A DNA stretch of 64,000 bases from Promethearchaeati archaeon SRVP18_Atabeyarchaeia-1 (GTDB lineage Archaea; Asgardarchaeota; Atabeyarchaeia; Atabeyarchaeales; Atabeyarchaeaceae). Under the pieces are notes generated by a model. That model saw only the letters and a program-made list of their open reading frames with translations, was not told where the DNA came from and ran no database searches. The stretch covers positions 1,568,001 through 1,632,000 of the forward strand of contig CP147779.1 in assembly GCA_037308085.1 (NCBI GenBank), read 5' to 3'. Below are positions 5,727 to 25,982 of this stretch, one piece after another (within the stretch, counting starts at the first letter, position 1; the number at the start of each line of letters is the position of its first letter). The position numbers and the translations under genes were made by a program.

Positions 5727-5730
5727 AACC

Positions 5731-7946: not shown

Positions 7947-8489
7947 ATGGCAAATAATAAACTTACTAACATTACTGCAGAACCAGGAGGACGAGAGATC
8001 GTCATCACCCGAGTCTTCGAAGCGCCGCGCGAACACGTGTTCAAGGCGTACACGGATCCGAATCTCATACCCCTATGGTGGGGTCCGAAAAAGTATGCTG
8101 CTACTGTTGACAAAATTCAGGTGAGCGCGGGGGGTGTTTGGCGATTCGTCCAGCGTGGACCCGACGGCAATGAGTACGCCTTCAACGGCGTGTATCACGC
8201 GATCGTGCCACCCGAGCGACTTGTCTCCACATTTGAATTCGAAGGTATGCCGGGTCATGTATCGCTTGAAACGGTGAAGTTAGAAGAGCAAGACGGCAAG
8301 ACAAAGCTCACGGCCACATCTGTCTTCCAAACGGTTGAAGATCGCGACGCGATGCTCAAGTCGGGAATGGAGGAAGGAGCGGTCGAGACCATGGATCGTC
8401 TTGCCGAACTTCTGCGAAAGCCTAAAGCGTTAACGAAAGAGAAAAGGGGTGAGTCTAGCCATGATCCCAATTCGAGGAGAGTGAGGTGA
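7947..8489 (+). CDS. SRPBCC/AHSA1-like protein
   Basis: EIVITRVFEAPREHVFKAYTDP...WWGP...GMEEGAVETMDRL. Confidence 0.92.
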   Translation: MANNKLTNITAEPGGREIVITRVFEAPREHVFKAYTDPNLIPLWWGPKKYAATVDKIQVSAGGVWRFVQRGPDGNEYAFNGVYHAIVPPERLVSTFEFEGMPGHVSLETVKLEEQDGKTKLTATSVFQTVEDRDAMLKSGMEEGAVETMDRLAELLRKPKALTKEKRGESSHDPNSRRVR

Positions 8490-8630
8490 GATTGCAGTCC
8501 ACAACTTCTAAGTAGAGCCACGTGGAATGATCCGTGAAGCAGTTTCGGGAGGAAACTGACAGTAGGAGAGTGCGCTCCTTTTTGGGAAAGACGGAACCGA
8601 AAGACTCAAAGACTCTACGGTATTTGAGTC
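8461..8630 (+). repeat. Long (170 bp) copy 1 of the dispersed hairpin repeat; core at 8598-8630
   Basis: 148/170 identical, ungapped, to 24211-24380. Confidence 0.92.
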
Positions 8631-8795
8631 CTATTCCGCGATACTTCTTTTTCGAGGCGGGGTCAACTTGACTAGCAAGAGAAACTACCCCTGACAATAA
8701 AGAAGGGATGCTAGCATGTGCCGCACGAGTGACGTCTTGTAGCCCCCTGCCCATGAAAATCAGGTCAGAAAAGAGCATTGAAAGCGTTCCATGCA

Positions 8796-9638
8796 CTAAG
8801 CAGGCTTTTCCTTATCCATCTCATCTAGCAAGACCTGTACATCGTCTTCGTCTAAAAGGTCAAACCTTGTTATTCTCCATTGGACTTTCCGACATATTGG
8901 AGTGCCTGGATATGCTCCAACATCGTACAGCTCGTAGTTTCGGAAGATTGTTGGCTTCTCTTGGTAGCATGTCCACACCGCCTTCTTTAAAGTATCAGTA
9001 TCTTCAACTCCTGTGAGATCTATGATTGCCACCTGTTTTCTAAACCTATCAACAGCTTCCATTGTGATGTTGAAAAGGTAAGGCTTGAGTGCCCTCGCAC
9101 CCTTTATGCGTCTTCCCTTGTCAAGCCCCTCTTCGATTAACGCCTTAATAGCCATCCCAGGCATATGCCCCTCAACGCCTCTCCCACATAGTACGAGGTA
9201 GCGTATGTTCGGGTTAGCAACGATATTCGCAATGATTTTCTCGATCCCGATGTTCGCTGTTTGCAGGGTTCCCGCTAGTGCTGCGCCGGACTCGATGGCA
9301 CTCCTTACAAGAGTTTCGATGCCACTGGGGATCTCGCCATAAGATGAACTTAGAAGGGTAATGACAGCTACTGGGGAGTAATCATTTCCTCGGAGATAGT
9401 GCCCATCCTCTGGAGGATAATCATCTGGAGGCTTAACCTTCCGTATCTCCTCAATAATCTCTATCGCTCCTTGAGGACACTTCTCCTCGCATCCTCCGCA
9501 TCTCGAGCATTTCTCCTCTGCCACTGGGACAGCTAGTTCTCTCTCACCGACGGTTCGAAATTCATAGATTCCTTGAGGGCAGGTGTCCACGCAGACGCCG
9601 CATCCCGAGCACTTGTCTTCGTCAACCTTGATCTTCAC
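8796..9638 (-). CDS. 2x[4Fe-4S] ferredoxin fused to a soluble MtrA-like corrinoid domain
   Basis: CSGCGVCVDTCP and CSRCGGCEEKCP, then TANIGIEKIIANIVANPNIRY...EGH; GTG start overlaps the upstream TGA (GTGA). Confidence 0.88.
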   Translation of the reverse strand: MKIKVDEDKCSGCGVCVDTCPQGIYEFRTVGERELAVPVAEEKCSRCGGCEEKCPQGAIEIIEEIRKVKPPDDYPPEDGHYLRGNDYSPVAVITLLSSSYGEIPSGIETLVRSAIESGAALAGTLQTANIGIEKIIANIVANPNIRYLVLCGRGVEGHMPGMAIKALIEEGLDKGRRIKGARALKPYLFNITMEAVDRFRKQVAIIDLTGVEDTDTLKKAVWTCYQEKPTIFRNYELYDVGAYPGTPICRKVQWRITRFDLLDEDDVQVLLDEMDKEKPA

Positions 9639-10363
9639 TGTCTCCCTGCGCCTCGCTCCCTCGCTGCCTTCTTGATGCGTTCGATTAGACTTAGCTCCTC
9701 GCTTGTCGTCTGGTACTTCCACGGTTCCTTGACCCTTACGGTTATCTTGGTACATATCGCTGGCTTGGGGTAGGCTCCTTCATCATGGAGAAGGTAGCCT
9801 CTGAACTCCACGGGCCTCCTGCTTCTGCACGCTGAGACAGCCTCCCTGACGTATTTAGCATTCATTCCGAGCCAGGGTTCATCCTCTGATATCAGGTTGA
9901 CAGGTTTAATCTGCTCCCTAAACCTCTCAGTTGCCTCTAGCGGCAGATTGTATAGGAATGGTGTTGGGGCCTCAGCCCCGATTATTCTTCGCTTCTCGTC
10001 CACTCCGTTCCCCAAGAGTTTCATAATCGCGTCCGCAGTCAAGTGGCCCGCAGACTCTCTCCAGCATATCACGAGGTATCGTATGTTCGGATTAGCCACA
10101 ACATTCGCAATGATTTTCTCGATCCCAATGTTCTCCGTCTGCACGCTTCCCGCAAGGGTAGCACCGCAGTCTATCGCGGTGCCAATGAGCTCGCTGAGTT
10201 CGACTGGAATATTAGATTCAAGTGTGTCAAGGATCGCCGCTACAGCAACCGGGGAATAATCATCTCCTCTAATGTATCTACCCTCTTCAGGCGGGTACCC
10301 TGGTGGCGGTTTGACCTTGGGGACATCCATACCACTATTCACGTCTACGTTATCACCTCTCAA
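9635..10363 (-). CDS. Soluble MtrA/MtxA-like corrinoid protein
   Basis: QTENIGIEKIIANVVANPNIRY...SAGH; no C-terminal TM anchor; start may be 10330. Confidence 0.88.
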   Translation of the reverse strand: MRGDNVDVNSGMDVPKVKPPPGYPPEEGRYIRGDDYSPVAVAAILDTLESNIPVELSELIGTAIDCGATLAGSVQTENIGIEKIIANVVANPNIRYLVICWRESAGHLTADAIMKLLGNGVDEKRRIIGAEAPTPFLYNLPLEATERFREQIKPVNLISEDEPWLGMNAKYVREAVSACRSRRPVEFRGYLLHDEGAYPKPAICTKITVRVKEPWKYQTTSEELSLIERIKKAARERGAGRQ

Positions 10364-10584
10364 TCTTGAATTTCAGCTCCTTATTTTTGGCGACTTAAAA
10401 ACCTGTGAAACAAAACGGCTGTCGACACTTGAAGAATAAACGCTATCACGACCACGAATGTTGATGGGTCCCAAATGACAGGACTGCAATTCCCAATGCT
10501 GTGGGCAGGTTCTTCATGCCAGAAGCGTAAGTCACTGAAATACCCTTTGCTCTATTGAAAATCTCTTTTCGGCGCGCATGGGCT

Positions 10585-10854
10585 CTATTCTTCTGCTTCA
10601 CTACGGATGGCATCTTCTAGCTTTTGTGCGTTGAACGTGAACTCGGTCATCTTGATGCCTCCGTTAACGACTACAGCCTTGGTTGACGTCAGACCATATT
10701 TCAAGGCTTCGTCGGAGAAAGCTTGCTTAACTTGGAAGTCAACCTGGCCCCTGAATTTCAAGACAACACTCCAGACCTTATCCATGAAGCTCTGCCAAGA
10801 ACACGCGCAGGCCCCAGTGGGAACAAACACTTCGACCCTGACCTTCTTATCCAT
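10585..10854 (-). CDS. Small thioredoxin-fold protein
   Basis: beta-strand then GACACS, AVVVNG; 89 aa. Confidence 0.7.
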   Translation of the reverse strand: MDKKVRVEVFVPTGACACSWQSFMDKVWSVVLKFRGQVDFQVKQAFSDEALKYGLTSTKAVVVNGGIKMTEFTFNAQKLEDAIRSEAEE

Positions 10855-10911
10855 AGTTTACTACCTTCCATATCCATCCTTTGCTGTCTACGGTTCTATC
10901 AATCAGGAGAC

Positions 10912-10935
10912 ACATATTTAAGTTTATAAATATGT
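10912..10935. promoter_or_regulatory. Putative ArsR operator 1
   Basis: ACATATTTA-N6-TAAATATGT perfect arms. Confidence 0.75.
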
Positions 10936-10949
10936 TTGGGTCACAAAAT

Positions 10950-10973
10950 ACATATTCAGATAGATGAATATGT
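10950..10973. promoter_or_regulatory. Putative ArsR operator 2
   Basis: ACATATTCA-N6-TGAATATGT perfect arms. Confidence 0.75.
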
Positions 10974-11048
10974 TCTTGCTTATGGAAATTAATTCAAACT
11001 AGATGCTTTGCATGCAACAAAGTAAGAGAAAAGAGGGATTGAGCTAAT

Positions 11049-11471
11049 TTGAGCGAGGAAGGCAAAGTTGTCGTCTTGGCCTGTAGTGGCATAGGTAAGG
11101 TTCTGGGGTCGATCACTCGCTTGGTCCTCTACCACATAATAGATGAAATGAGGAGGCAGAACACGACCACGACTTGTCTGCCACTGGTTGCGCTCAAGGA
11201 CAAAGAAGCCGTTGCGCTCGTCAGTAACCATCCATGCATAACTATTGACGGCTGCCCTAACAAATGTGCGAAGGTTTCTGCTGAGAACGCTGGTGCGACC
11301 GCGGTAAAGGCTTTCACTGTGGCCGAGTTCATGCGGAAGTTCAAAGACCTGAAGCCTTCAGCCGCTTCAGTGCTGGAGCCCGGACAAGGTGGAAGGGCAC
11401 TCGCGCGCAAGATTGCTGAACAAATAAGTCTGGAAGTCGACGAGCTATCAAACGAGAATGTCCGGTTTTGA
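11049..11471 (+). CDS. DGC-domain (putative Zn-binding) protein
   Basis: ACSG...TCL...IDGCPNKC. Confidence 0.88.
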   Translation: MSEEGKVVVLACSGIGKVLGSITRLVLYHIIDEMRRQNTTTTCLPLVALKDKEAVALVSNHPCITIDGCPNKCAKVSAENAGATAVKAFTVAEFMRKFKDLKPSAASVLEPGQGGRALARKIAEQISLEVDELSNENVRF

Positions 11472-11484
11472 GGAGGTCCCACGG

Positions 11485-11937
11485 TTGAGTGAGCATGGCG
11501 ATTGGATGCGCAATAAGGTTGGCGTGGTAACGTGCAGCGGAGAAGAAATCTCCGAGGGAATGGTCTCTAGAGTAGCTGCGAGAAAAGTCCTTGAAGAGCT
11601 CGAACCTAATGACACTATGACGATATGTATTCCTCTTTACTTGGCGGGAGGCGAGGAGGAGAGAAGCTTTGTAACAAAGTCCCCAACAGTCACAATTGAT
11701 GGTTGTGATAAGCTCTGTGCGAAAAGGAGTGTTGAGAAGGTTGGGGGTCGACCCATAGCGGCGGTTGTGGTTACTGACTTCATGAAGAGAGAACACGTCA
11801 AACTCAAGACAGAGTCGCGAAGGGAACTTGAGCCAAAGGGTGCAGAACTGGCAAACACCATTGCTTCCAAGGTCGCTGCCATTATCGAGGATTACGTGAA
11901 GGCTCAAGGCAGAGTGACTGGAAGAAGGGAGGGGTAG
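11485..11937 (+). CDS. Second DGC-domain protein
   Basis: TCSG...ICI...IDGCDKLC; GAGGAGG SD before TTG 11485. Confidence 0.88.
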   Translation: MSEHGDWMRNKVGVVTCSGEEISEGMVSRVAARKVLEELEPNDTMTICIPLYLAGGEEERSFVTKSPTVTIDGCDKLCAKRSVEKVGGRPIAAVVVTDFMKREHVKLKTESRRELEPKGAELANTIASKVAAIIEDYVKAQGRVTGRREG

Positions 11938-11941
11938 GAAC

Positions 11942-12397
11942 ATGGAGTTTCTTGAATTTACTATTGACAAATTCATCTTCAGAGTGGTCAAAGGCAACAA
12001 GTACTCTCAAGATGATGTCTGGCTTGCTAGTGCGGGTGAGAGAAGGTGGAGGATCGGGATAACTGACTTCCTTCAGAAAACGAGTGGCGACGCAGTAATT
12101 GCACAATTGCCAGATTTGGGCAGGACCTTTCAGAGGGGTAGCGAGGTGGCGCAGTTTGAAACTGTTAAGACTATCATCTCAGTTCCTATGCCCGTCACCG
12201 GCAAAGTTGTCGAAAGAAATGACAGGATTCTTGATGAGCCTGGGCTCTTGAACAGCGATCCGTATGGTAAAGGCTGGATAGTCACAGTTGAAGCGAGTAA
12301 CGTAGAGAAAGAGTTCAAGCACTTGCTCTCTGACAGCTCCTATTTTGAGTTAATGAAGAAAAAGGTCAGCGAGGTTCAATCCAAGCCGAGAAAGTAA
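11942..12397 (+). CDS. gcvH: GcvH-like lipoyl carrier protein
   Basis: IGITDF, ETVKT (lipoyl Lys), NSDPYGKGWI. Confidence 0.9.
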   Translation: MEFLEFTIDKFIFRVVKGNKYSQDDVWLASAGERRWRIGITDFLQKTSGDAVIAQLPDLGRTFQRGSEVAQFETVKTIISVPMPVTGKVVERNDRILDEPGLLNSDPYGKGWIVTVEASNVEKEFKHLLSDSSYFELMKKKVSEVQSKPRK

Positions 12398-12472
12398 ACA
12401 TGTCAATATAACATTGTCTCTTGGATCATCGTGTCTATTCCAGAGCCAGATATGTAGGGGTGGTGTTAGTTC

Positions 12473-12898
12473 TTGCCAGTCTACAGAACTAAGGTAACTT
12501 GGTTGGGCGGGAATACTGGTAGCCTTGAGTGTGGGAATGGCACCCGAATGGATTTTAGCGCTCCTCCAAGCCTCCACGGCAAACATGGGGTGATGACTCC
12601 GGAGGATGGTTTCGTGGCTTCGCTGAACATGTGCGTGCACATGATGTTTATTTGGGTCGCAGAGAGGATGAAGATAGAACTTCTGTCTTATGAGTGTGAA
12701 GCGGAGGGGACAGTTCAGGACAGACTTGATAGGACATCCGTCTTTACGAAGCTGATTTTGAGACCAAGAATAGTAGTTAGGATGGCGACAGAAGAGAAGG
12801 TCAAACAGGCGATGCAGCTAGCGAGGAAATTCAGTCTAGTGGCAGAATCAATAAGACCTGAGGTAGTCATTGAGCCCGAGGTAACAATTAAGCGTTAA
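12473..12898 (+). CDS. OsmC/Ohr family protein
   Basis: TPEDGFVASLNMC; position of the second Cys appears to be Ser (KFSLVAES). Confidence 0.85.
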   Translation: MPVYRTKVTWLGGNTGSLECGNGTRMDFSAPPSLHGKHGVMTPEDGFVASLNMCVHMMFIWVAERMKIELLSYECEAEGTVQDRLDRTSVFTKLILRPRIVVRMATEEKVKQAMQLARKFSLVAESIRPEVVIEPEVTIKR

Positions 12899-13103
12899 CA
12901 CTCCTCTCACCGTATTAACCAGAGTCGCACCTGCTATATATGTGAAGGTCATCTATACGAGCCAGTAGAAGCAGGAGTCTTTGGTGTCTTTGCCTTGGTT
13001 ACGCCCGCTATTTGCGCATCATACCCAAATTTCGTTATTGTGGTGGTCAGCGGATGCGTCAAGTACGAACCTAAGAAGTTCTGAAGAAAACCAATATGGC
13101 GTG

Positions 13104-13820
13104 TTACCCTGTTCCTCTTCTTATCATCTCTGCATACTCGTGTGGTAACTCTGAAGCCTCGATGGCGCTCGTCATTCTTTCCACATCATATTGAACTCTC
13201 CTAAAACCTATGCTCAACTCTTCAGCTGGAGTCAAGAGAGCGTAAGTTGCCCTTGGGTCACCATCCTTGGGCTTTCCGAGACTTCCGACGTTTACGACAT
13301 GCTTATCGTCTATCACCTTGTGGTAGGGCAGATGCGTATGTCCACACACGAGGAGATTGCATCCTCCTGCCTGCAGGAGGCGATTGAAGGTCTTCGCTGG
13401 TCTGTCCTCGTATAGGTACTCATTAATCCTTCTGGGGCTACCATGAGTGAGAAGGATCTCGAATGCCTCTTGGCTGAAGCGTAGCTCGCGCGGCAGGGTC
13501 CTCAGGAATTCCTTGTTCTCCCTTGTGACGTGGGTCTTCGTCCAATCTAGGGAGCGGTGACCGAGCAATCTCTGCGTTTCGTCTGTATAAGCGCACCCAC
13601 AGTCGTCTCTCTCAAAGCCGACACCTTCATCATAGTTGCCCATCACACCTGCGATTCCCTTGCTCCTTATGCTGCTTATCACTTCATTTGGAAAGGGGCC
13701 GTATCCAACAAGGTCCCCACAGTGGAGGATCTTGTCAGCGCCTTGCTCTTCAATGTCAAGGAGAACCGACTCAAGGGCGGGAAGGTTGCTGTGAACATCG
13801 GAGAAAATCGCGTACTTCAT
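13104..13820 (-). CDS. Calcineurin-like metallophosphoesterase
   Basis: SDVHSN, GDLVGYG, GNYD, CGC insert, HGSP, GHTH. Confidence 0.92.
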   Translation of the reverse strand: MKYAIFSDVHSNLPALESVLLDIEEQGADKILHCGDLVGYGPFPNEVISSIRSKGIAGVMGNYDEGVGFERDDCGCAYTDETQRLLGHRSLDWTKTHVTRENKEFLRTLPRELRFSQEAFEILLTHGSPRRINEYLYEDRPAKTFNRLLQAGGCNLLVCGHTHLPYHKVIDDKHVVNVGSLGKPKDGDPRATYALLTPAEELSIGFRRVQYDVERMTSAIEASELPHEYAEMIRRGTG

Positions 13821-13844
13821 GGGGGGTGACCATCTCGAGTTTCT

Positions 13845-14234
13845 CTACTTCAGCGATTCCAGTTTCTTCATGGTCTCAACAATCTTTGGGTTTGCAAGGG
13901 AATAGTAAGCCCACTTCCCTTCTTTCCTTCTTTCTAGCAAACCCTCCTTCTCCAACAGCACTAGGTGGTGAGACGCAGTTGGTTGTGTCATGTCCAATGC
14001 AGCCATTATCTCGCAAACGCACATCCTGCGAACCATTAATAACTTCAATATTCTAATTCTGCTGTCGTCACTTAGAGCTTTGAAGAGCCGGCTTTCTCTG
14101 ATGGCTAAATCCTTGTTCGCTACCTTGGCAGCCAACTCCTTCAACTCATTCGCGTATCTGGAAGCATCTTTGCCCTGGCAATAGGGCGAAGCAACCAACC
14201 TAACCAGTCTCCTGTCAGAATGACTCTTCGACAT
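13845..14234 (-). CDS. arsR: ArsR/SmtB metalloregulator
   Basis: FKALSDDSRIRIL...MCVCEI...QPTASHHL; CVC As(III) motif. Confidence 0.92.
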   Translation of the reverse strand: MSKSHSDRRLVRLVASPYCQGKDASRYANELKELAAKVANKDLAIRESRLFKALSDDSRIRILKLLMVRRMCVCEIMAALDMTQPTASHHLVLLEKEGLLERRKEGKWAYYSLANPKIVETMKKLESLK

Positions 14235-14253
14235 GTTCTCATCCACTGCTAGT

Positions 14254-14277
14254 TCATATCTGCGAGACCAAATATGT
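14254..14277. promoter_or_regulatory. Putative ArsR operator 3, upstream of arsR
   Basis: TCATATCTG-N6-CAAATATGT; same CATAT-N12-ATATG spacing. Confidence 0.6.
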
Positions 14278-14487
14278 ATTTTGCCGGAAGGCAACTTCAG
14301 CCGCTTGAGCTATTGAAGCACCTTGACCCCATAAAGATCTGTGAAACGGCCAGCGCCGCGTTCCCCCCTATTTCTGTCGGTGACGGTCTGCCCCTCCTCT
14401 GAGCATTGTTCCAAACCAGTATCTATGTTAATCTCTTGTCGCTTCTGTGCCGATCATAATAAGATATATATGTCACTTCTTGCGGAT

Positions 14488-14511
14488 TCATATTAATAAA
14501 TCTAAATACGT
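14488..14511. promoter_or_regulatory. Putative ArsR operator 4, upstream of acr3
   Basis: TCATATTAA-N6-TAAATACGT. Confidence 0.6.
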
Positions 14512-14531
14512 AAATATGAACCTAGATAGCG

Positions 14532-15620
14532 GTGTGGAACATGCCTGAGAAATCCTTGAAGAAACTTTCGCTGATCGATAGGTTACTTCCGATCTGGATT
14601 TTTCTTGCGATGGCTATCGGCGTGGGAGCAGGGTGGGCATTCCCACAGATTGCGACGATTTTTAACATGCTCCAGATAGGAACGGTTTCGCTTCCCATTG
14701 CGATCGGATTGCTGTGGATGATGTATCCTCCCCTTGCTAAGGTGAAGTATGAGGAGCTCGGGAAGATTAAGGGTGCGAAGAAAATGTTTGGAGTGTCGCT
14801 CTTCCTAAACTGGGTAATTGGACCTTTCCTCATGTTTTCGCTGGCCTGGCTCTTTCTGCCTGATCTGCCTGATTATAGGGTTGGTATCATCATAGTTGGG
14901 TTGGCTAGATGCATTGCGATGGTCTTGATATGGAACCTGCTTGCAGGCGGTGATAGTGAGTATGCCGCTGTCTTGGTTGCTCTCAATTCGATCTTCCAGA
15001 TGGTGTTCTACTCGATCTACGCCTACTTCTTCGTGACCTTGCTCTCCTCTTGGGTAAGCGGGTCTGCGGGCATGGTCGTGAATATCTCGGTTTGGAGTAT
15101 CGCGCAGAGCGTTTTGATCTTTCTCGGTCTTCCTTTCGCCGCCGGAATAATCACTAGGTTCACGTTGATCCACAGAAAGGGGAAGGTATGGTATGAAGAG
15201 AAATTCATTCCGAGGCTGAGCCCCACCGCAATCATCGGCCTCCTCTTCACAATAGTCGTAATGTTCTCCATGAAAGGTGAGTACATATTGAATTTGCCTT
15301 TTGATGTGCTCAGGGTTGCCGTCCCTCTGGCGTTGTATTTTCTGATAATGTTTTTCACTTCTTTTCTCCTGTCTTGGCGCTTGAGGTTCAGTTATCCTGA
15401 AACGGCGACGCTCTCCTTTACCGCTGCGAGCAACAACTTTGAGCTTGCGATAGCTGTAGCTGTCGGGGTGTTCGGGATAAACTCGGGGCAGGCTTTCGCC
15501 GCAGTCATAGGGCCTCTAATCGAAGTTCCGGTGCTTATCGGCCTAGTCTACGTTTCACTCTGGCTAAAGACCAAGATGTTCGCCAAGGCGAGAAGATCTG
15601 GGATGAGTGGCAAGACCTAA
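14532..15620 (+). CDS. acr3: Acr3 arsenite efflux transporter
   Basis: [34 protein letters not shown]. Confidence 0.96.
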
Positions 15621-15722: not shown

Positions 15723-15760
15723 CGAAAGACTCAAAGACTCGCCGGTGAAAAGCGCGCGCT
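15723..15760 (+). repeat. Truncated copy of the hairpin repeat plus AGCGCGCGCT
   Basis: CGAAAGACTCAAAGACTCGCCGGT. Confidence 0.8.
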
Positions 15761-18949: not shown

Positions 18950-19348
18950 TCAGGTGAGATTCTTCACTTGGTGTGCAAGGATTCCTCTATATCTCGAAGC
19001 ACATTTACGTTCTTCAGAGGAGGCTCTTCTTGCAGCCCACTCTAGAAGCGGAGTGATTGATTTCCTGAGTTCCGTTCCGTCGGTGGTAAGTGAGTATTCT
19101 ACACGGGGAGGTATCTCCGAAAAGGCTTCTCTCCTGATTATGCCTTCACCTTGAAGTCCTTTCAACGTGTCAGATAGGGTTTTGGGGCTGATGCCACCCA
19201 ACTCTTCCATGAGCCCATTGAACCTGAGCCTCCCATTATTGCCGATAGCGTTGACGACCAGGAGCGCCCACTTCTTGCCTATAACATCTATGACGCCTTC
19301 AAGAGGGCAGAGGCATACATGATCACCATTTTCACACATACTAATCAC
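18950..19348 (-). CDS. HxlR family winged-helix regulator
   Basis: CPLEGVIDVIGKKW...RFN...ISPKTLS...IPPRVEYSLT. Confidence 0.93.
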   Translation of the reverse strand: MISMCENGDHVCLCPLEGVIDVIGKKWALLVVNAIGNNGRLRFNGLMEELGGISPKTLSDTLKGLQGEGIIRREAFSEIPPRVEYSLTTDGTELRKSITPLLEWAARRASSEERKCASRYRGILAHQVKNLT

Positions 19349-19444
19349 TTACTCTGTGCATAGTCACTGTCTTGCTATAAACTTGGTAGTATAAATACTT
19401 CACTTTTGATATTGTTAACCTCATAGAAATGAGGTGAACAAAAA

Positions 19445-19630
19445 ATGTGTTGCCGTTGCAATTGTGAACAGCATCATCATGAGGAAGGACGAGAAGATGA
19501 ATACGGCCTATGCCACACAAGGCGTTTCCTAACTAAAGCAGAGAAGACTGAGAAAATGAAGGGCTATGCAGAGGAGCTAAGGAAGGAACTTGCAGCAGTC
19601 GAAGAGCACATCAAAGAATTGGAAAGCTAA
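19445..19630 (+). CDS. Small Cys/His-rich coiled-coil protein
   Basis: MCCRCNCEQHHH...RRFLTKAEK...ELAAVEEHIKEL; GAGGTGA SD. Confidence 0.8.
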   Translation: MCCRCNCEQHHHEEGREDEYGLCHTRRFLTKAEKTEKMKGYAEELRKELAAVEEHIKELES

Positions 19631-19844
19631 GGGTAGTCGCGAAATAGACGTCCAAGAACTGCGTTCCCCCTTTCCAATCGCGGGATCATAGTCAAGAACT
19701 GCTTACCTAAAGAAAGAACCAAGTCAGAGAAGGAACCCCCATTTGGGAAACAATGAGTCAGACTGAGACCGGGGAGCGCACAAACCTGCTAGGATGAGGC
19801 TTTGGATTGCAGATAGCTTCTGAGAACGAAAGGAGACTGGAAAT

Positions 19845-20774
19845 ATGACTGCGGAAGACGCCATTGAAGTCTCAAATCTAACCAAACACTATGATAACCT
19901 ACTGGCGGTCGATCACATAAGCTTCGAGGTTAGGAAGGGAGAGATCTTTGGCTTCTTGGGTCCCAATGGTGCTGGCAAGACAACTACGATTAGAATGCTC
20001 ACTGGTATCATCAAACCTGATGACGGCGCGGCTTCGATCTTGGGCCATGACATTCTGAGAGAGGGGCTCAAGAGTAGACAAGTAACAGGGGTCGTTCCAG
20101 AAATGGCGAATGCCTACATTGACCTCTCAGCCTGGGGAAACCTGACACTGATGGGCGAGTTATATGGAGTACCCAGGAGGCAGAGAGAGAAGAGCGCCTC
20201 TGCGCTCCTGAGAAAAGTCAGGCTATATGATCGAAGGAATAGCCTTGTAAGAGGATTCTCAAGAGGAATGAAGCAGAGGCTGCTATTGTGCATGGCACTC
20301 GTCAGTGAGCCACAAATTCTCTTCCTAGACGAACCCACGTCAGGTCTAGATGTCGAGAGCCAATGGTTGATAAAAGATATGATTCGTGAAATCAACAAAA
20401 GCGGAACAACTGTGTTCTTGACAACACATAACATGGAAGAAGCTAACCAGCTCTGCGATAGAATAGCAATCATCAATCACGGCAAGATCGCAGCGATCGA
20501 TACTCCAGAGAAGCTCCGCATGCAAAGCAGCGGATTGAACTCCGTCGAGGTAAGCTTCGAAAAGGCGATACAAGCTGAAGAATTGATGAAAATCGAAGGT
20601 GCAAGAGAGGTCAAAAAAACTGGGGATAAGATAAGACTGTACACAGATCAGCCAAGCATAGTACTCGAGAGGATTGTTGATTTTGCGCGCTCAAGGAGGC
20701 TCAAAATAGTCACCCTCAACACGTTAGGTCCCACTCTAGAAGACGTATTCCTAAGACTTGTGAAGGAAAGTTAA
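19845..20774 (+). CDS. ABC-2 exporter ATP-binding subunit
   Basis: GPNGAGKT, FSRGM, FLDEPT. Confidence 0.95.
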   Translation: MTAEDAIEVSNLTKHYDNLLAVDHISFEVRKGEIFGFLGPNGAGKTTTIRMLTGIIKPDDGAASILGHDILREGLKSRQVTGVVPEMANAYIDLSAWGNLTLMGELYGVPRRQREKSASALLRKVRLYDRRNSLVRGFSRGMKQRLLLCMALVSEPQILFLDEPTSGLDVESQWLIKDMIREINKSGTTVFLTTHNMEEANQLCDRIAIINHGKIAAIDTPEKLRMQSSGLNSVEVSFEKAIQAEELMKIEGAREVKKTGDKIRLYTDQPSIVLERIVDFARSRRLKIVTLNTLGPTLEDVFLRLVKES

Positions 20775-20780
20775 GGGAGG

Positions 20781-21548
20781 ATGATGCGATTCTTGGGCAA
20801 ACATGTTTATTCGGAGCAGTTCAAACGGTCTCTTGCGATCGTCAAGAAGAACATACGGATCTACTACTCTAAGGGGCCCGTAATCACTTTTGGTCTTCTG
20901 ATACCATTCTTTCTTTTTCTTTCGTTCTATATTGGGAGGAGTTCAAGTGTTGAGGATTTGATACCCGGGTTGCTTGCAATAACTGTCTTCTTCACAGCTA
21001 GCTCGGTGGGGCCCGCAATAGTTCCTTGGGAAGCGAGATCAAAGACTCTCGAGAGGCTCGTATCCTGTCCCGTCTCAATCTGGACGATCTTTGTCGGCGA
21101 CATGCTTTCATCCTTCCTGTTCGGGGCCATTATCTCAGTATTTCCTGTGATCATCGGCTTGTTGCTAGGCGTGGAGATAGCCAGCCCGCTATTGCTTGGA
21201 CTCGGAATAACTGCGGGAGCATTATGTTTTGCAGCTTTGGGAGTGCTCATGTCTGCCTATCCGCCGACAGATGTTCCAGCGACCATAATGATGCTGTCTT
21301 CTATGATCAAGTTTCCGCTGGTTTTTATAAGTGGTATCTTCATTCCCATTCAAGAGCTGCCGGACTGGGGCAGAATAGTCTCCTCATTTTCTCCGTTGAC
21401 ATATTTCACAGATCTGGGGAGGAGCTCAATACAAGGCTACAGCTACTACCCCTATTGGCTGGACATCGTGGTCGTGGTCGCATTCGCAATTGTCTTCTTG
21501 GTCTCAGCCGTGAAACTTCATGAACGCACAATACAGAAACGACTTTGA
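20781..21548 (+). CDS. ABC-2 type permease
   Basis: 6 TM; FISGIFIP...FSPLTY. Confidence 0.92.
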   Translation: MMRFLGKHVYSEQFKRSLAIVKKNIRIYYSKGPVITFGLLIPFFLFLSFYIGRSSSVEDLIPGLLAITVFFTASSVGPAIVPWEARSKTLERLVSCPVSIWTIFVGDMLSSFLFGAIISVFPVIIGLLLGVEIASPLLLGLGITAGALCFAALGVLMSAYPPTDVPATIMMLSSMIKFPLVFISGIFIPIQELPDWGRIVSSFSPLTYFTDLGRSSIQGYSYYPYWLDIVVVVAFAIVFLVSAVKLHERTIQKRL

Positions 21549-21730
21549 GACGCACAAAGATGAAGCGAATATCCTCTACGAGGAAGAAGAAAAAGGTGCA
21601 CCCTCGCTCGTCCTAGCGCACGGGGCAGCAATCGTCAGCTGGCAGCACGCGACCTCGCTGATTTGTGGAACAGTCCGCTGACTGCCAAGATGGCAGTGAA
21701 GGTGGGCGCTTTGGGGTCTCTGGATGAATC

Positions 21731-22207
21731 TTAATCCTTTTTTGTTTTCTTCCTCTTGTTGTATCTGTACTGGTAGTATCCGAAAGAACTCATCATAATG
21801 AAGAAGGAGACCACAAGCATATTTCCATAGAAGTTTGAGACTAGGTATCCATACCAGTTCAAGCCTATACTTCCGATGAAAAGGAGCAGAAGGTAAACAG
21901 TGAGGCCGATTGGCCAACGGTCAGGATGATGATAGGGCTTCTTTCGAGTGATTAAACGATACCAAAGGTCGTAGACCAGATAGATGATTATGGGTAGTCC
22001 TGCTACCAAACGTCCTGAATCGTTGCCAATTAAGAGGTTCACCACCCAAAGCAGAGTGAAGGGTATCAGCTGGAGACTGAACACAGGGCTCAACTTCCAC
22101 TCCAGCTTTTCGAGTTGGTGAGCACGCAACAGATATACGACTATCAGGAAAGCATAGAAGACCAGCGCAAAGAAGATAACAAGATTATCGATAAGAACTT
22201 TATCCAT
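21731..22207 (-). CDS. Hypothetical membrane protein
   Basis: Five hydrophobic segments. Confidence 0.7.
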   Translation of the reverse strand: MDKVLIDNLVIFFALVFYAFLIVVYLLRAHQLEKLEWKLSPVFSLQLIPFTLLWVVNLLIGNDSGRLVAGLPIIIYLVYDLWYRLITRKKPYHHPDRWPIGLTVYLLLLFIGSIGLNWYGYLVSNFYGNMLVVSFFIMMSSFGYYQYRYNKRKKTKKD

Positions 22208-22401: not shown

Positions 22402-22456
22402 CGAAAGACTCTGGCACCAAGCAGTGTTTGAGTGTAGTTCCCCTATAGCGCGCGCT
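22402..22456 (+). repeat. Degenerate hairpin repeat copy plus AGCGCGCGCT
   Basis: CGAAAGACTCTGGCACCAAGCAGTGTTTGAGTGTAGTTC. Confidence 0.7.
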
Positions 22457-22565
22457 CATAGAAGGGGGGGATGAGAGTTCTTGATGTCCACATAGGTATG
22501 CCTTTAATACTTTGTTGAGTCAAGGTTTTGCAGAGTTCGAGAAGTTGTACGGGCTGGTTCTGAGC

Positions 22566-23147
22566 ATGACAAGAAAGAAGGTTGGAAGCAAGCCTCTCCT
22601 TTTCCCATTCCCGGTCACGATAGTCGGGGCAGATGTCGGTGGAAAACCAAACTTCATGGCGATCGGATACATTGGAATAATCGATGACACACCATCCATG
22701 ATCGCACTAGGATCACTAAAGAGCCATTACACAAACAGAGGCATCATTGAAAACAAGACCTTCTCTGTCAACATCCCAACAGAAGAGATGCTCCAAATCA
22801 CCGACTATGTAGGGACAATCTCCAGGGAGAAGGTAGACAAGTCGAAGCTATTCGATGTCTTCTACGGTAGGCTGAAGAACGCACCAATGATAGAGCAGTG
22901 CCCAGTCAACCTTGAATGCAAGGTTCTCGATATCCTAGAAAAAGGGGGCACGTATTACAACATCATTGGCGAGATTGTTGAATCTTATGTTGACGAGAAA
23001 TACGTGACTGGAAAGTACCCGGACATCGAGAAGATGAAACCTATGGTCTTCTCAGTAGCCGGCGCCAAGTACTACTCAATTGGCAAGTACCTTGGAACTA
23101 TGGGGAGCGCGAGCAAGGACTTCAAACGCGAGATAAAAAAGCAATAG
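22566..23147 (+). CDS. Flavin reductase-like (flavoredoxin) protein
   Basis: PFPVTIVG...FSVNIP...APMIEQCPVNLEC. Confidence 0.9.
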   Translation: MTRKKVGSKPLLFPFPVTIVGADVGGKPNFMAIGYIGIIDDTPSMIALGSLKSHYTNRGIIENKTFSVNIPTEEMLQITDYVGTISREKVDKSKLFDVFYGRLKNAPMIEQCPVNLECKVLDILEKGGTYYNIIGEIVESYVDEKYVTGKYPDIEKMKPMVFSVAGAKYYSIGKYLGTMGSASKDFKREIKKQ

Positions 23148-23377
23148 CCTTCAGCAGCGCGCGCTAATTGAAACCAGAGCCAGGCGGAGAGGATGGTGTG
23201 GTGGCACTTCTCAGATAATATTTCGCAGAGACTAGCAGAGAGATCAGAAGAGGCGATGTGGAGCTACCCTAGACGCATAATGCATGGTCTCGGTATTGAG
23301 CGGTCAGCCAGACGCTCAAAAGTAATATCAATAGTGCAGATCGGAGGGGCGAGAGAACGGAAAAAATACCGCCGTCT

Positions 23378-24139
23378 TTGGCGAAATCGGGCGCGAAGGA
23401 AATACTAGAACGAATGAAATCAATCTCAGGAGGAAAAGTCTTAGATGTCTGCACGGGAAGCGGTGATTTCATTCAAGCCTTGGTACAGACCCTGAAGGAT
23501 TTTGTTTCCTTCGTAGGAGTTGACGTGTCAGAGAGGGATTTGGAAGCTGGAAAAAAGCGCTTTGTGGGCAGACCTGTAGAGTTTAGGAAAATGGATGCAA
23601 GGATTCTGGAATTCCAAGAAAACAGTTTTGACACTGTCACCATGGCCAATTCAATGCACCATCTTGACGAAGTAGGGAAAGGGCTGGATGAAATGAAACG
23701 TGTTTTGAAGCCCGGAGGGTACCTTATCGTCAATGAGCCATATTGTGATGGTAGGCAAAACGAAGCGCAGAAGACAGACATACTCAAACATCACTGGACT
23801 TCTGAGATTGATTCATTGTTGGGAATCACTCATCATTACACATTCACCAAAAAAGAGATCAAAAGGTTGATCGCTAGGCTTGGATTAAGGGATTTCGAGA
23901 CGCTTGATTCCGCGCGCTATGTCAAATGCTTGTATTGCGAACGAATGTATGAGTGCGAAGACCCAAGAAGTGAAAACCACCTCAAAGACATGATAAAGGA
24001 GATCAACGAAGATCTCGAGCGCTTGAAGACACACCCCGAAGCGAGAAAACTAGGACAGGAGGGCGAGAAGCTGAAGGAGAGAGTCAAGAAAGTCGGCTCC
24101 GCGGACGCCTCAAGCCTGTTTCTCATTGGTACTAAGTGA
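23378..24139 (+). CDS. Class I SAM-dependent methyltransferase
   Basis: VLDVCTGSG, FDTV, RVLKPGG. Confidence 0.9.
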   Translation: MAKSGAKEILERMKSISGGKVLDVCTGSGDFIQALVQTLKDFVSFVGVDVSERDLEAGKKRFVGRPVEFRKMDARILEFQENSFDTVTMANSMHHLDEVGKGLDEMKRVLKPGGYLIVNEPYCDGRQNEAQKTDILKHHWTSEIDSLLGITHHYTFTKKEIKRLIARLGLRDFETLDSARYVKCLYCERMYECEDPRSENHLKDMIKEINEDLERLKTHPEARKLGQEGEKLKERVKKVGSADASSLFLIGTK

Positions 24140-24210: not shown

Positions 24211-24380
24211 ATGATCCAAAATCGAGGAGAGGAGGGTGAGATAGCTGTCCGCAACTTCCAAGTAGAGCCAAGTGGAATGATCCTTGAAGCAGTTTCGGGA
24301 GGAAATTGACACGAGGACTGCGCGCTCCTTTCTGGGAAAGACGGCACCGAAAGACTCAAAGACTCGCCAGTATTTGAGTC
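24211..24380 (+). repeat. Long (170 bp) copy 2 of the dispersed hairpin repeat; core at 24348-24380
   Basis: 148/170 identical to 8461-8630. Confidence 0.92.
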
Positions 24381-24540
24381 CAAGTTTCCTCCAAACACTT
24401 CTTTTTGAAAAAGAGCTTTCAGCTCTGATTCAGACTGACCTTGATCAGTCTTAAGAGAAGCATGCAGTGCAGAGAAAACGAGGTTTATCGACGTTGGCAG
24501 ATTCTCGACAATTCAAGTGTCTCAACCCCGTCGAGCTCTC

Positions 24541-24804
24541 TCAGGGTCGGTAGACTCTCTTTCTGAGGTCCAGATTAACCAAGACTATTATGCTCTCTTT
24601 TTCGTAGATCTTGAATAGTGCTCTATACTTTCCAAGGCGCAATCTGAAGGTATCCTCTTCTCCAGCAATCTTGACAATGTCCAGTTTGGCACTCGGAAAG
24701 TCTTCGAGTTCTCTGAGCTTTTCTATTACCCGTGTCCTACTGCTGGCATCCAGCCTCCCAATAGCTGATTCAACTTTTCTGTGAAGTAGAACCCTGAACT
24801 TCAT
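24541..24804 (-). CDS. RelE/ParE family toxin
   Basis: FRLRLGKYRALF...DLRKRVY. Confidence 0.9.
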   Translation of the reverse strand: MKFRVLLHRKVESAIGRLDASSRTRVIEKLRELEDFPSAKLDIVKIAGEEDTFRLRLGKYRALFKIYEKESIIVLVNLDLRKRVYRP

Positions 24805-24976
24805 CGAGAGGCGTCAACTCACTCAATTTCCTTTCCTTGATCATATTGTCAGCTTCTCTGAGCAGTCTGTATTCTTCTGGTGTCAAGAAGACGTCTTCAA
24901 GGAACTCGCGCAATTCATCGATCTTTCTGTCGATCTCCTTGACTTTGTTTAGAACTGATGAACTCGTGGAAACCAC
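24770..24976 (-). CDS. Putative cognate antitoxin
   Basis: Small acidic ORF (LTPEEYRLLREA...TPLDEV) overlapping the toxin start. Confidence 0.75.
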   Translation of the reverse strand: MVSTSSSVLNKVKEIDRKIDELREFLEDVFLTPEEYRLLREADNMIKERKLSELTPLDEVQGSTSQKS

Positions 24977-25147
24977 CAATCCAGAGTTAATGGAGCGTGT
25001 CTTAAAAAGTCTTCCCAACCCAGTCGCTGTTTCATCAAACCACTGTGAAGCATTCAGACAGTCTTGGAAAGCTATTGCTCAACCGCTGGAACAGTCTTAG
25101 GCTAAGCTTTTGTTGTTTTCAGTTGGCTTAAGATTCTTGAGCCCCAA

Positions 25148-25180
25148 CGAAAGACTCAAAGACTCGACAGTATTTGAGTC
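25148..25180 (+). repeat. Hairpin repeat core copy
   Basis: CGAAAGACTCAAAGACTCGACAGTATTTGAGTC. Confidence 0.9.
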
Positions 25181-25477
25181 CAGTTCACCGTCAGCCCATC
25201 TTTTTGACTCGAAGGCTTGTTGCTGTGCCTCATACAGGTTCCTAGGGTAACGCCTCCGTCAGTAGGCGCTTCTGGCGTTGTCAAGGGTCGAAGAAGATAG
25301 CCTCGAAGAACTTGGAGTTGCAAGCCCATAAGCATTAACTGCGCGTAACATACCTATCTGATGGACTCAATAGAATAGCCATAACTATTTAATTCGAAAA
25401 GTCCAATGATTACTTGAAGTAAGCTATGATGAAAGAGAAACGTTGGCTTAAGAAAGGTTGGAAGTGAAGTCAAAGAT

Positions 25478-25684
25478 ATGCGTCAAGTTATCCTTTATCT
25501 TGGCGAAGATGGCTACTGGGTTGCTGACTGCTCCAGTCTACCTGGATGTGTTAGCCAAGGCAAGACAAAGGAAGAGGCTATCGCCAATATTAAGGAGGCC
25601 ATCCAAGGTTACATCGAAGCATTGCAGGATGACAATATGCCTGTGCCTGCTGAGCATTTTGAGGCTATCGTGGTGGCAGTATGA
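25478..25684 (+). CDS. hicB: HicB family antitoxin
   Basis: LPGCVSQGKTKEEAIANIKEAI. Confidence 0.92.
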   Translation: MRQVILYLGEDGYWVADCSSLPGCVSQGKTKEEAIANIKEAIQGYIEALQDDNMPVPAEHFEAIVVAV

Positions 25685-25902
25685 GCAAACTACCCCTCAT
25701 CTCGGGTCGTAAGTGCGTAAAGGCGCTGGAAAAGACGAATTTCTATATCAAGAGGCAAAGCGGAAGTCACATAATCCTGCGCCGCGACGATCCTTTCACT
25801 CAAGTTGTAGTCCCTGATCATAAAGAGCTCGACTGAGGAACTCTGCTAGCCATCATAAAACATGCCGGTCTGACAGTCGAAGACTTTATGAAGCTTCTTT
25901 AG
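25681..25902 (+). pseudogene. hicA: HicA toxin with an in-frame TGA at 25834
   Basis: MSKLPLISG...RQSGSH...VVVPDHKELD*GTLLAIIKHAGL; absent from the ORF track. Confidence 0.88.
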
Positions 25903-25965
25903 AATAGAACTTGTGCGGGTCTTGCCAGATTCACCGCACCAAGGTCATTTGCTGGATGCCCGCGC

Positions 25966-25982
25966 CGAAAGACTCAAATACC
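25966..25982 (+). repeat. Partial hairpin repeat copy
   Basis: CGAAAGACTCAAATACC. Confidence 0.6.

Follow-up and report, generated by a model that had tools for sequence, protein, structure and literature searches.

A variable region of an Asgard archaeal chromosome cut by short direct repeats into apparently swappable gene blocks with no nearby integrase

The window analysed here, 64,000 nucleotides from the 2.81-Mb genome of Promethearchaeati archaeon SRVP18_Atabeyarchaeia-1 (G000), carries between a cupin-domain gene and the threonyl-tRNA synthetase gene (ThrRS, thrS) a row of gene blocks interspersed with copies of a short repeat (Table 1). Cassette cargo comprises four toxin-antitoxin types, metal resistance, transporters and redox enzymes, with no recombinase, and Pfam searches bore out the module contents listed in an initial annotation of this DNA. 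In predicted composition, the cargo matches that of known cassette systems.

Table 1. Repeat copies and gene blocks in the window (window coordinates).
Feature	Position	Strand	Basis or remark
Cupin-domain gene, left chromosomal boundary of array	377..835	-	Pfam Cupin_2; homologous region L026 4029-4541 at left edge of G001 array
Catalase (-) and Fur (+) block	1027..3035	.	Pfam; 84% DNA identity to G001:1502626-1504606
Decayed right-arm remnant after Fur	3038..3065	+	By-eye alignment to weak post-Fur copy of G001 (L026 8648)
Dienelactone-hydrolase-like gene and 123-aa ORF (DLH cassette)	3344..5084	+	Pfam, tblastn/BLAST, junction alignment
Degenerate copy closing DLH cassette	5092..5146	+	Arms 8/11 and 8/11; nhmmer E = 0.009-0.09; inspection
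IS200/IS605 element in array (TnpA 5331-5726, TnpB 5704-7056)	5217..7062	+	Pfam Y1_Tnp, TnpB TNB domain
87-aa ORF, 114-aa ORF, AHSA1/SRPBCC gene	7103..8489	+	Pfam; order identical in public assemblies
Repeat R1, complete	8598..8653	+	CGAAA, 11-bp left arm, 6-bp spacer, 11-bp right arm, GTTCYCC-like box, T tract; ssDNA fold z = -3.7
Two MtrA-like genes, one with ferredoxin domain	8796..10363	-	Pfam; tblastn, missing from G001 copy of neighbouring module
Decayed repeat before ars module	10531..10572	+	Junction alignment; full copy at same junction in G001
ars/redox module: hyp104, 2x DGC, GcvH, OsmC, metallophosphoesterase, ArsR, ACR3	10562..15620	.	Pfam
Repeat R2, half-site	15723..15746	+	Left arm, spacer, 2 nt; right arm replaced by stretch with AGCGCGCGCT palindrome
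MFS transporter cassette	15902..17227	-	Pfam; homologue elsewhere in G001 (2578578-2579782)
Repeat R3, complete	17335..17391	+	No stable ssDNA hairpin
Interval with TrkA_N, hyp161, hyp96, HxlR, ABC ATPase, ABC-2 permease, hyp158	17554..22207	.	Pfam
Repeat R4, complete, diverged	22402..22453	+	Spacer CAAGCA, shared with one G002 copy
Flavin reductase and SAM methyltransferase cassette	22512..24139	+	Pfam
Repeat R5, complete	24348..24404	+	~140 nt upstream common to R1 (8460-8597 matches 24210-24347)
ParE/RelE toxin and antitoxin cassette	24541..25018	-	Pfam; 0.8 kb between repeats
Repeat R6, complete	25148..25204	+	Motif and profile searches
HicB-HicA cassette	25458..25836	+	Pfam HicA; HicB_lk_antitox in public gene call
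Repeat R7, terminal half-site	25966..25987	+	Good left arm, unrelated right arm; orthologous to final G001 array site
ThrRS (thrS), right chromosomal boundary in G000 and G001	26298..28220	+	Pfam; BLAST 73-76%

The repeat was confirmed at seven positions between 8598 and 25966, all on the plus strand and all intergenic in our gene calls, where shuffled sequences led us to expect no match. The initial annotation had described these as seven co-oriented intergenic hairpins; coordinates, strand and placement stand, but only five copies (8598, 17335, 22402, 24348 and 25148) possess both arms and only three fold stably. The copies at 15723 and 25966 consist of left arm and spacer alone and are therefore not hairpins. 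A further three copies, all decayed, fall outside or between these seven, so that the array spans about 835 to 26298. Whole-genome searches by regular expression, nhmmer and covariance model confined full copies to 17.5 kb, all in the plus orientation, and the repeat is not scattered through the genome as an ordinary MITE or REP would be. The earlier statement that no copies lie outside 8-26 kb thus holds for full copies, but not for the decayed ones at 3038 and 5092. Elsewhere in the G000 genome the searches recovered one weak copy (genome position 1,710,426) and a remnant of a right half (868,700). The repeat was found in three Atabeyarchaeia genomes only, with 6-8 copies per genome, co-oriented within each array. 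No credible match was obtained in other GTDB species, JGI metagenomes or IMG/VR, nor any family match in Rfam, and no tRNA or other gene end was found at the repeat site.

Each complete site has a 6-bp spacer between two inverted arms of 11 bp, the whole preceded by a conserved 5′ CGAAA and followed by a 3′ GTTCYCC box and a T tract; arm symmetry reaches 10/11 in three copies. Conservation is highest in the right arm (1.81 bits per column), followed by CGAAA (1.69), the less conserved left arm (1.43), the next 9 nt (1.2), the variable spacer (0.93) and the flanks (0.1-0.5). The right arm hardly varies among 16 copies from two genera, whereas the flanks cannot be aligned, a contrast that speaks for ongoing selection. 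Both half-sites, R2 and R7, break at the edge between spacer and right arm. Single-stranded folding is better than that of shuffled sequences in the copies at 8598, 24348 and 25148 (z -3.6 to -4.9), and not in those at 17335 and 22402. Arm pairing shows no covariation across the copies, the sequence being conserved and the pairing not. Judged from these alignments, a double-stranded core site describes the repeat better than 'hairpin' does, and the 11-6-11 layout, with a single conserved arm, a spacer that varies and half-sites that break off at its edge, points towards double-strand recombination by a tyrosine recombinase.

Comparison covered the three known Atabeyarchaeia, which represent two genera: G000, G001 (both complete) and G002. 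The site recurs in both relatives, the only two available in the databases. G000 and G001 each have an array at the shared cupin-to-ThrRS locus, with different cassettes in a different order; the first copy in G001 directly follows the cupin-homologous region. In G002 the ThrRS junction is unassembled, since contig C137 begins a short way upstream of the gene. The catalase/Fur block lies in G001 on the opposite side of the DLH block, after the 123-aa ORF. A full repeat precedes the DLH cassette in both G001 and G002, where on contig C185 the order is ABC pair, repeat, DLH, and the G000 junction falls exactly at that position. Relatives carry arrays at several loci, and shared cassettes are more similar (82-90% DNA identity) than the backbone (65-77%). 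Over 5.08 kb, the ars module shares 90% identity with G001:1853107-1858172, against 65-77% for the local backbone; the G001 copy is enclosed by two full repeats and lies some 350 kb away from that genome's main array. Likewise, the RelE pair is 85% identical to G002 C64:5676-6154, again between repeats and in a different adjoining backbone.

By our tally, gene adjacency is kept across none of 8 repeat-bearing gaps, compared with 14 of 17 repeat-free gaps (Fisher p = 1.5e-4; p = 0.009 when limited to inter-operon gaps). Gene-order breaks in the relatives therefore coincide with the repeat, as expected if it delimits modules of a gene-capture-like array, and this part of the initial annotation was upheld. 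The ends of the array are asymmetric: R7 has an ortholog in G001, and the first G001 site is asymmetric in the opposite sense. On sequence grounds, the ends look like hybrid sites of the attL/attR type.

We consider it somewhat probable (roughly 55%) that the blocks are integrase-less gene cassettes, stacked between the cupin gene and thrS and exchanged by site-specific recombination at double-stranded core-type sites, a reading whose evidence base is three related genomes. A tyrosine recombinase supplied in trans would bind the arms, with strand exchange at the edges of the spacer. Two direct sites that recombined would release a circle with one site, and this circle could insert at any other site, perhaps following its transfer to another cell. 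A first insertion into a poor secondary site would leave a site with a weak left and good right arm at one end, and one with a good left and foreign right arm at the thrS end. A second role of the T tract that follows each site may be to stop transcription between cassettes. Several observations count against this reading. Neighbouring sites have unlike spacers, which would be an obstacle to classical two-strand exchange; solitary copies occur in ordinary backbone intergenic regions of G001; and the HxlR-ABC part at 18939-21555, which is 85% identical to G001:1628455-1631070 in a different, repeat-free backbone, appears to move as a sub-unit with no repeats at its ends. Cassette order does not vary among the public assemblies compared, which represent the same strain and derive from four sequencing runs, and therefore no ongoing movement is seen.

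Which enzyme would act on the sites is a separate question. No recombinase was found linked to any array in the three genomes, nor any connection to attC sites or an HUH enzyme; no tyrosine-recombinase gene adjoins an array, and MGE integrases are encoded elsewhere in the genome. XerA is the only tyrosine recombinase common to all three genomes, and the XerA-like gene was confirmed, with 5HXY and 4A8E as best PDB matches. Of the 11 positions of the conserved right arm, 7 agree with the dif-like arm (p about 0.008, uncorrected for multiple comparisons). Against identity with a XerA/dif system, the TAA-N6-TTA core reported for archaeal dif (PMC11840125) is missing from the repeat. Canonical dif-like sites lie near xerA, separate from the repeat and different from it. 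Host XerA is a tentative and rather doubtful candidate.

Among the alternatives, the sites could be inert scars left by integrase-bearing elements that integrated successively at one spot and later lost their integrases (tandem accretion, CIME-like), gene order having changed through deletion and ordinary recombination. Bounding by direct repeats, hybrid-looking end sites, the several decayed or half copies in G000, the MGE integrases elsewhere and the invariant public assemblies would all suit such a history. We nevertheless regard it as unlikely, given that none of about 20 cassettes in the three genomes holds an integrase or a remnant of one, that some cassettes are merely 0.8 kb with one toxin-antitoxin pair, and that both the selection suggested by the right arm and the excess similarity of cassettes over backbone between genera speak against it. 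We judge with similar scepticism, and as slightly more improbable, a non-recombinational intergenic element (a terminator or insulator, a binding site for a chromosome-organisation protein, or a small MITE/REP-like element) piling up between operons in a plastic region. It would account for the T tract after the palindrome, the 14 of 20 copies downstream of a co-directional gene (our tally), the solitary backbone copies and the lack of a linked recombinase, whereas six of the 20 copies have the wrong orientation for a terminator, in the aligned copies neither terminal inverted repeats nor target duplications flank the unit, and the few co-oriented copies per genome, their coincidence with gene-order breaks, the half-sites broken at the spacer edge and the lack of an Rfam match all tell against it.

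An integron-type cluster (CALIN), in which an IntI-like integrase encoded elsewhere recombines folded single strands at atypical attC sites, is very unlikely. Integrons are known from archaea, mostly as CALINs and with an enrichment in Asgard lineages (PMC9668308), and co-oriented sites, toxin-antitoxin cassettes and an absent adjacent integrase fit. The core, however, measures 28 bp against 57-141 bp for attC, the RYYYAAC/GTTRRRY pair is absent, conservation lies in sequence rather than structure with 4/7 copies unfolded, three intervals span 5-7 kb and contain several operons with regulators of their own, and arrays have no adjoining tyrosine-recombinase gene; the initial annotation was right that the sites lack attC features. 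Its suggested link to HUH enzymes (REP-RAYT, IS200/IS605 TnpA), with the repeats as single-strand hairpin substrates, is largely refuted, for although a TnpA gene lies 3 kb from R1 and all copies share one strand, that gene belongs to a complete IS605 with ends unrelated to the repeat, IS605 copies lie elsewhere in G001 and G002, whose arrays lack TnpA, no REP population exists genome-wide and the hairpin is not conserved. Of its proposal of recombination sites or scars of an undescribed gene-capture system, the boundary behaviour thus survives and the single-strand hairpin mechanism does not.

Read as exchangeable cassettes, the locus would be a variable Asgard chromosome region cut into swappable blocks of arsenic resistance, transporters and toxin-antitoxin pairs, and from its sequence it looks like an undescribed archaeal gene-capture array. 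Tandem accretions and CIMEs at integrase att sites share direct att repeats bounding integrase-less blocks mobilisable in trans; here, no cognate integrase or parent element was found, blocks are as small as 0.8 kb and the site is not at a tRNA or gene end. Archaeal XerA/dif (PMC2958812, PMC11840125) resembles the repeat in its 11-bp imperfect inverted arms, 6-bp spacer, conserved flanks, location away from xerA and position within a broad GC-skew plateau, and differs in having the TAA-N6-TTA core, whereas the repeat is multi-copy and distinct from the canonical dif-like family next to xerA. Integrons and CALINs, including archaeal ones (PMC9668308), likewise place one co-oriented site per cassette, are rich in toxin-antitoxin genes and vary in content at a fixed locus, but the present array lacks intI, attI, attC anatomy and a conserved fold, and several of its cassettes are multi-gene with their own regulators. 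IMEX at dif (CTX/TLC/VGJ phages of Vibrio, the gonococcal island) are also recombinase-less elements in tandem at one chromosomal site that leave one-sided hybrid sites, with a housekeeping Xer enzyme as suspected driver; here, the site is not the genome's canonical dif-like site, relatives use several loci and the cassettes are plain cargo rather than phages or islands. No archaeal IMEX was found by a term search of one review (PMC8371274) or among the papers listed by a literature search. The Acinetobacter dif modules (pdif, XerC/XerD; PMC6449649) have inversely oriented, canonical dif-like flanking sites and are mostly plasmid-borne, in contrast to the direct, chromosomal, archaeal sites described here, which differ from the host's dif-like sequence and carry extra conserved flanks. 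In common with this array, they have 28-bp sites of 11-6-11 layout in which one arm is well conserved, the other looser and the spacer variable; their small modules lack an integrase and carry metal or peroxide resistance, transporters (for K+ among others) or toxin-antitoxin pairs of 0.8 kb, and one and the same module recurs in different contexts.

Seven copies of the repeat were recovered on the + strand of the window by pattern search, a repeat finder and direct reading, where none is expected by chance (R1–R7 in the table). Gene calls from ORFs and Pfam place all of them between genes and return, interval by interval, the modules that the initial annotation had named (an arsenic/corrinoid locus, an MFS transporter, a K+ channel/HxlR/ABC module, flavoredoxin with a methylase, a RelE pair and HicBA). 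Its description holds in essentials and needs correcting in two respects. The stem-bearing core ascribed to all seven copies is reduced to its 5' half in R2 and R7, and the confinement of the repeat to 8–26 kb holds for full copies, whereas two decayed copies lie outside that interval; a third lies between listed copies. Throughout the 2.81-Mb single-contig genome of Atabeyarchaeia-1 (49.5% G+C), searches by regular expression, nhmmer and covariance model placed full copies in this stretch only, all on the + strand, and added one weak copy and one right-half remnant. The repeat is clustered and co-oriented, and the genome-wide scatter in both orientations by which an ordinary MITE or REP family would have been recognized is not borne out.

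Positions of the repeat copies and of other features in the window or in the genome named
Feature	Sequence	Position	Remark
R1	window, + strand	8598	
R2	window, + strand	15723	half-site
R3	window, + strand	17335	
R4	window, + strand	22402	
R5	window, + strand	24348	
R6	window, + strand	25148	
R7	window, + strand	25966	half-site
Decayed copy	window	3038-3065	
Decayed copy	window	5092-5146	
Decayed copy	window	10531-10572	
Array	window	~835-26298	extent with decayed copies counted
Weak copy	Atabeyarchaeia-1	1,710,426	
Right-half remnant	Atabeyarchaeia-1	868,700	
Stretch upstream of R1	window	8460-8597	
Stretch upstream of R5	window	24210-24347	
Palindrome AGCGCGCGCT	window	15751, 15879, 17391, 22447, 23156	
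Palindrome AGCGCGCGCT	Atabeyarchaeia-1	868,700	and 11 other places
Catalase	window	1027-2502	
IS605/TnpB right-end hairpin	window	7035-7062	
Recurrence of that hairpin	window	36582-36609	29.5 kb off
HxlR-ABC unit	window	18939-21555	
HxlR-ABC unit	Atabeyarchaeia-2	1628455-1631070	
HxlR-ABC unit	LC30	contigs C139, C185	two copies
Two adjacent TrmB-family genes	window	28355-30040	just past ThrRS
ars module copy	Atabeyarchaeia-2	1853107-1858172	
429-aa tyrosine integrase	Atabeyarchaeia-1	1,552,845-1,555,547	~12-15 kb before the window
PF00589 matches	Atabeyarchaeia-1	168, 1554, 1662, 2015, 2591 kb	168 kb weak, below cut-off
Serine recombinases	Atabeyarchaeia-1	1259, 1501, 1970 kb	
Canonical dif-like sites	Atabeyarchaeia-1	1,992,402; 1,997,171; 2,015,996	last just upstream of xerA
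Three short repeated stretches	locus L022	9485-9577, 10706-10785, 10881-10980	Atabeyarchaeia-1 ~1,709,985-1,711,480

A covariance-model census counted six copies in Atabeyarchaeia-1, eight in Candidatus Atabeyarchaeum deiterrae Atabeyarchaeia-2 (CP147780.1) and seven in the LC30 MAG (JAHPYV01), co-oriented inside each array. The latter two were the only genomes retrieved by an exact-pattern scan of GTDB, and the three together make up the order in databases; the Atabeyarchaeia-1 genome is presumably the one published in PMC11291895 and PMC11529989. Pattern scans of JGI metagenomes and IMG/VR gave matches at chance level only, and no Rfam family matches the repeat.

Alignment of 16 copies from the three genomes defined a conserved unit in which a 6-bp spacer separates left and right arms of 11 bp each, with CGAAA before the left arm and a GTTCYCC-like box and a T tract after the right one. 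Conservation peaks at 1.81 bits per column in the right arm, followed by CGAAA (1.69) and the left arm (1.43), reaches its lowest value within the unit in the spacer (0.93) and is near zero in the flanks. The arms pair in 83.5% of cells, a value attained by 110 of 500 column shuffles and hence no sign of covariation, and single-stranded folding exceeds that of shuffles in three of the seven window copies but not in the other four. Since pairing is no better than in shuffles and only three of seven copies fold, the conserved feature is a dyad-symmetric sequence rather than a hairpin. The mechanism first proposed, in which an HUH enzyme (IS605 TnpA) acts on hairpins, is not supported by these two observations or by the IS605 ends, whose sequences are unrelated to the repeat and which were rejected as its source. 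The IS605/TnpB right-end hairpin recurs further along the window, probably as the end of another TnpB element.

Two 11-bp imperfect inverted arms around a 6-bp spacer give the repeat the geometry of Xer-type tyrosine-recombinase targets (PMC2958812), and such 11-6-11 sites with unequal arm conservation have been described (PMC6449649). Three copies rank among only 35 sites of this type in the genome with ≤1 mismatch; a perfect-looking site at 1,955,817 was dropped, as it is not conserved in the relatives. The half-sites end at the edge between spacer and right arm, which is the point where Xer-type tyrosine recombinases exchange strands.

Two further sequence features accompany the repeat. The ~140 nt upstream of R1 and R5 are ~87–90% identical, so that two cassettes share an end of ~200 nt including the repeat; this end was not found in Atabeyarchaeia-2 or LC30, and the shared stretch coincides with a contig break in one public assembly. 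Atabeyarchaeia-1 has 17 copies of the 10-bp palindrome AGCGCGCGCT, against 16 in LC30 and three in Atabeyarchaeia-2 (reversed-pattern controls 3 in Atabeyarchaeia-1, 1 in LC30 and 1 in Atabeyarchaeia-2), with five copies within the array and eight within 1537–1591 kb. It stands in place of the right arm of R2 and of the left arm of the 868,700 remnant, the MFS gene and the flavin reductase gene are each bracketed by a pair of copies, and it is also present on the LC30 array contigs C125, C64, C71 and C139.

Comparison with the two relatives supports the gene-capture reading of the initial annotation. At the shared locus, the Atabeyarchaeia-2 array runs cupin, site, DLH-hyp (DLH, dienelactone-hydrolase-like gene), catalase-Fur, weak site, FAD oxidoreductase, site, site, PIN toxin-antitoxin pair, half-site and ThrRS, and differs from that of Atabeyarchaeia-1 in cassette content and order, the terminal half-site on the ThrRS side being orthologous in both. 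The first site of the Atabeyarchaeia-2 array is asymmetric the other way round, its left arm being degenerate and its right arm good; such asymmetric end sites are what would result if site-bearing circles integrated into an ancestral site of poor quality. None of the ars, RelE, ABC and DLH blocks is tied to a single context. Over 5.08 kb the ars module shares 90% identity with a copy flanked by two full sites in a second Atabeyarchaeia-2 array, where the backbone is only 65–77% identical; an 85% identical counterpart of the RelE pair lies between sites on LC30 contig C64, next to a different backbone; and LC30 has the ABC pair, then a site, then DLH. Gene adjacency is kept in a relative at none of eight site-bearing gaps versus 14 of 17 site-free gaps of the Atabeyarchaeia-1 array (p = 1.5e-4; p = 0.009 for inter-operon gaps only), in a tally that is our own reading of BLAST tables for three related genomes. 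Across the three genomes, the cassettes carry arsenic resistance, OsmC and other redox enzymes, methyltransferases, MFS and ABC transporters, part of a K+ channel and toxin-antitoxin systems of four types (ParE/RelE, HicAB, PIN and HepT).

Because cassette identity exceeds that of the backbone and the right arm is near-invariant across genera, sequence comparison argues for use of the sites on evolutionary time scales. At strain level, public assemblies (Logan) of this strain cover four sequencing runs, and in them every contig with an identical RelE, AHSA1, ThrRS or GcvH protein keeps the same cassette order, with no ongoing movement seen. Fossil att scars, with which such constancy is compatible, are one of two main rival accounts of the repeats and an unlikely one. 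Two kinds of counter-example also occur: the HxlR-ABC sub-module occupies another backbone without sites in Atabeyarchaeia-2, and solitary sites lie in backbone intergenic regions, one of them, at 2,161 kb in Atabeyarchaeia-2, inside a 1.7-kb insertion, away from its edge and hence uninformative. Solitary sites would suit the other main rival, an intergenic element with no part in recombination, which is likewise unlikely. The three genomes share the HxlR-ABC block at 82–85% identity; its movement follows a different route. Elsewhere, the window catalase has 94% protein identity to its Atabeyarchaeia-2 copy as against 56–80% for neighbouring genes, reflecting either recent exchange or unusual constraint, and three short stretches at locus L022 have many 77–92% matches grouped at 2,640–2,663 kb of Atabeyarchaeia-2 and on LC30 contig C94, forming another repeat family.

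Cassettes of all three genomes lack a recombinase, and the uncharacterized small ORFs of the array gave neither a recombinase nor an excisionase in PHROGs and Pfam searches. No PF00589 match or serine recombinase of Atabeyarchaeia-1 adjoins the array, nor does a PF00589 match occur at the arrays of the relatives. A 429-aa tyrosine integrase, neighboured by genes for a C5 cytosine methylase, an HhH-GPD glycosylase and TnpB, lies 21 kb upstream of the array. The only tyrosine recombinase common to the three genomes is a XerA-like enzyme of ~290–300 aa, whose closest matches among solved structures are the XerA proteins of Thermoplasma and Pyrococcus. A search for TAA-N6-8-TTA with ≤2 arm mismatches yielded no candidate with a 6-bp spacer; a looser one revealed a canonical dif-like family (ATAA-N6-TTATGTGAAGC) at 1.99–2.02 Mb, with equivalent sites near xerA in Atabeyarchaeia-2. 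As this distinct family lies near xerA, the repeat is not the host's dif-like site; its inner bases read GAC-N6-GTA, without the TAA-N6-TTA core, reportedly the best-conserved element of dif in archaea (PMC11840125), and it is present in five to eight copies at one to five loci, compared with the single functional terminus copy of dif. Of the 11 positions in the conserved arm, 7 agree with the dif-like arm (p ~0.008, single comparison), which is only suggestive of a link to XerA. Cumulative GC skew peaks at 1.37–1.41 Mb with a plateau to ~2.1 Mb, and since the array (1.58 Mb) and the canonical dif-like array fall inside this plateau, both lie in the broad terminus zone. Two TrmB-family regulator genes adjoin ThrRS; a Thermococcus TrmB-like protein shapes a chromosome boundary at dif (PMC11840125), probably a coincidence. 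Island accretion at tRNA or tmRNA genes was rejected: the direct repeats are not the 3' ends of such genes, and the window contains no tRNA, tmRNA or Rfam family.

Collectively, we favour, at a probability of roughly 0.55, a cassette array of tyrosine-recombinase type served by an enzyme acting in trans, a variant that belongs with integrons, dif modules and IMEX elements. More tentatively, Atabeyarchaeia might run an undescribed, integrase-less chromosomal gene-capture system with its own 11-6-11 sites, distinct from the host dif-like sites, through which a trans-acting Xer-type recombinase exchanges resistance, transport and toxin-antitoxin cassettes between genera, as an independently evolved archaeal counterpart of integrons and dif modules. 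Eukaryotes have no closer known relatives than the Asgard archaea, and the array bears on how the latter acquire foreign genes. If active, the sites would provide a route of gene capture that is simple and open to experiment, consisting of a 28-bp site and one host recombinase, and would carry the dif-module/IMEX principle over to Archaea; as a sequence handle, the site also allows accessory-gene cassettes to be spotted in further genomes of Atabeyarchaeia.

Integrons have been described in Archaea, with enrichment in the Asgard group (PMC9668308). Classical integrons have been published for some Asgard MAGs, and integrase-bearing elements for Atabeyarchaeia, but no such cassette array (PMC9668308, PMC11529989). 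The array is not described in the paper on Atabeyarchaeia mobile elements, which covers 14 integrated elements, LC30 is unmentioned in the supplements of PMC9668308, no IMEX-type element was found in a review of archaeal tyrosine recombinases, and the literature examined contains no description of an archaeal dif-module or IMEX system. REP/RAYT and MITE families have many dispersed copies in both orientations, with a cognate RAYT or transposase, or TIRs and target duplications, a pattern that the repeat does not share. Integron and CALIN attC sites are imperfect palindromes of 57–141 bp (RYYYAAC ... GTTRRRY) whose fold is conserved, whereas here the sequence is conserved; as already stated in the initial annotation, attC features are absent, the core being 28 bp with no complementary R''/R' pair in 16 copies. 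Integrons also carry intI, with attI, beside the array, and none is present here, although CALINs can lack intI, so that this alone is not excluding. The likeness to Acinetobacter-type dif modules lies in the division into discrete units that 28-bp Xer-type sites delimit and that recur in different contexts; those modules, however, are plasmid-borne, have inverse flanking sites and use a XerC/XerD heterodimer, whereas the present sites are direct and chromosomal, with a single XerA in place of the pair.
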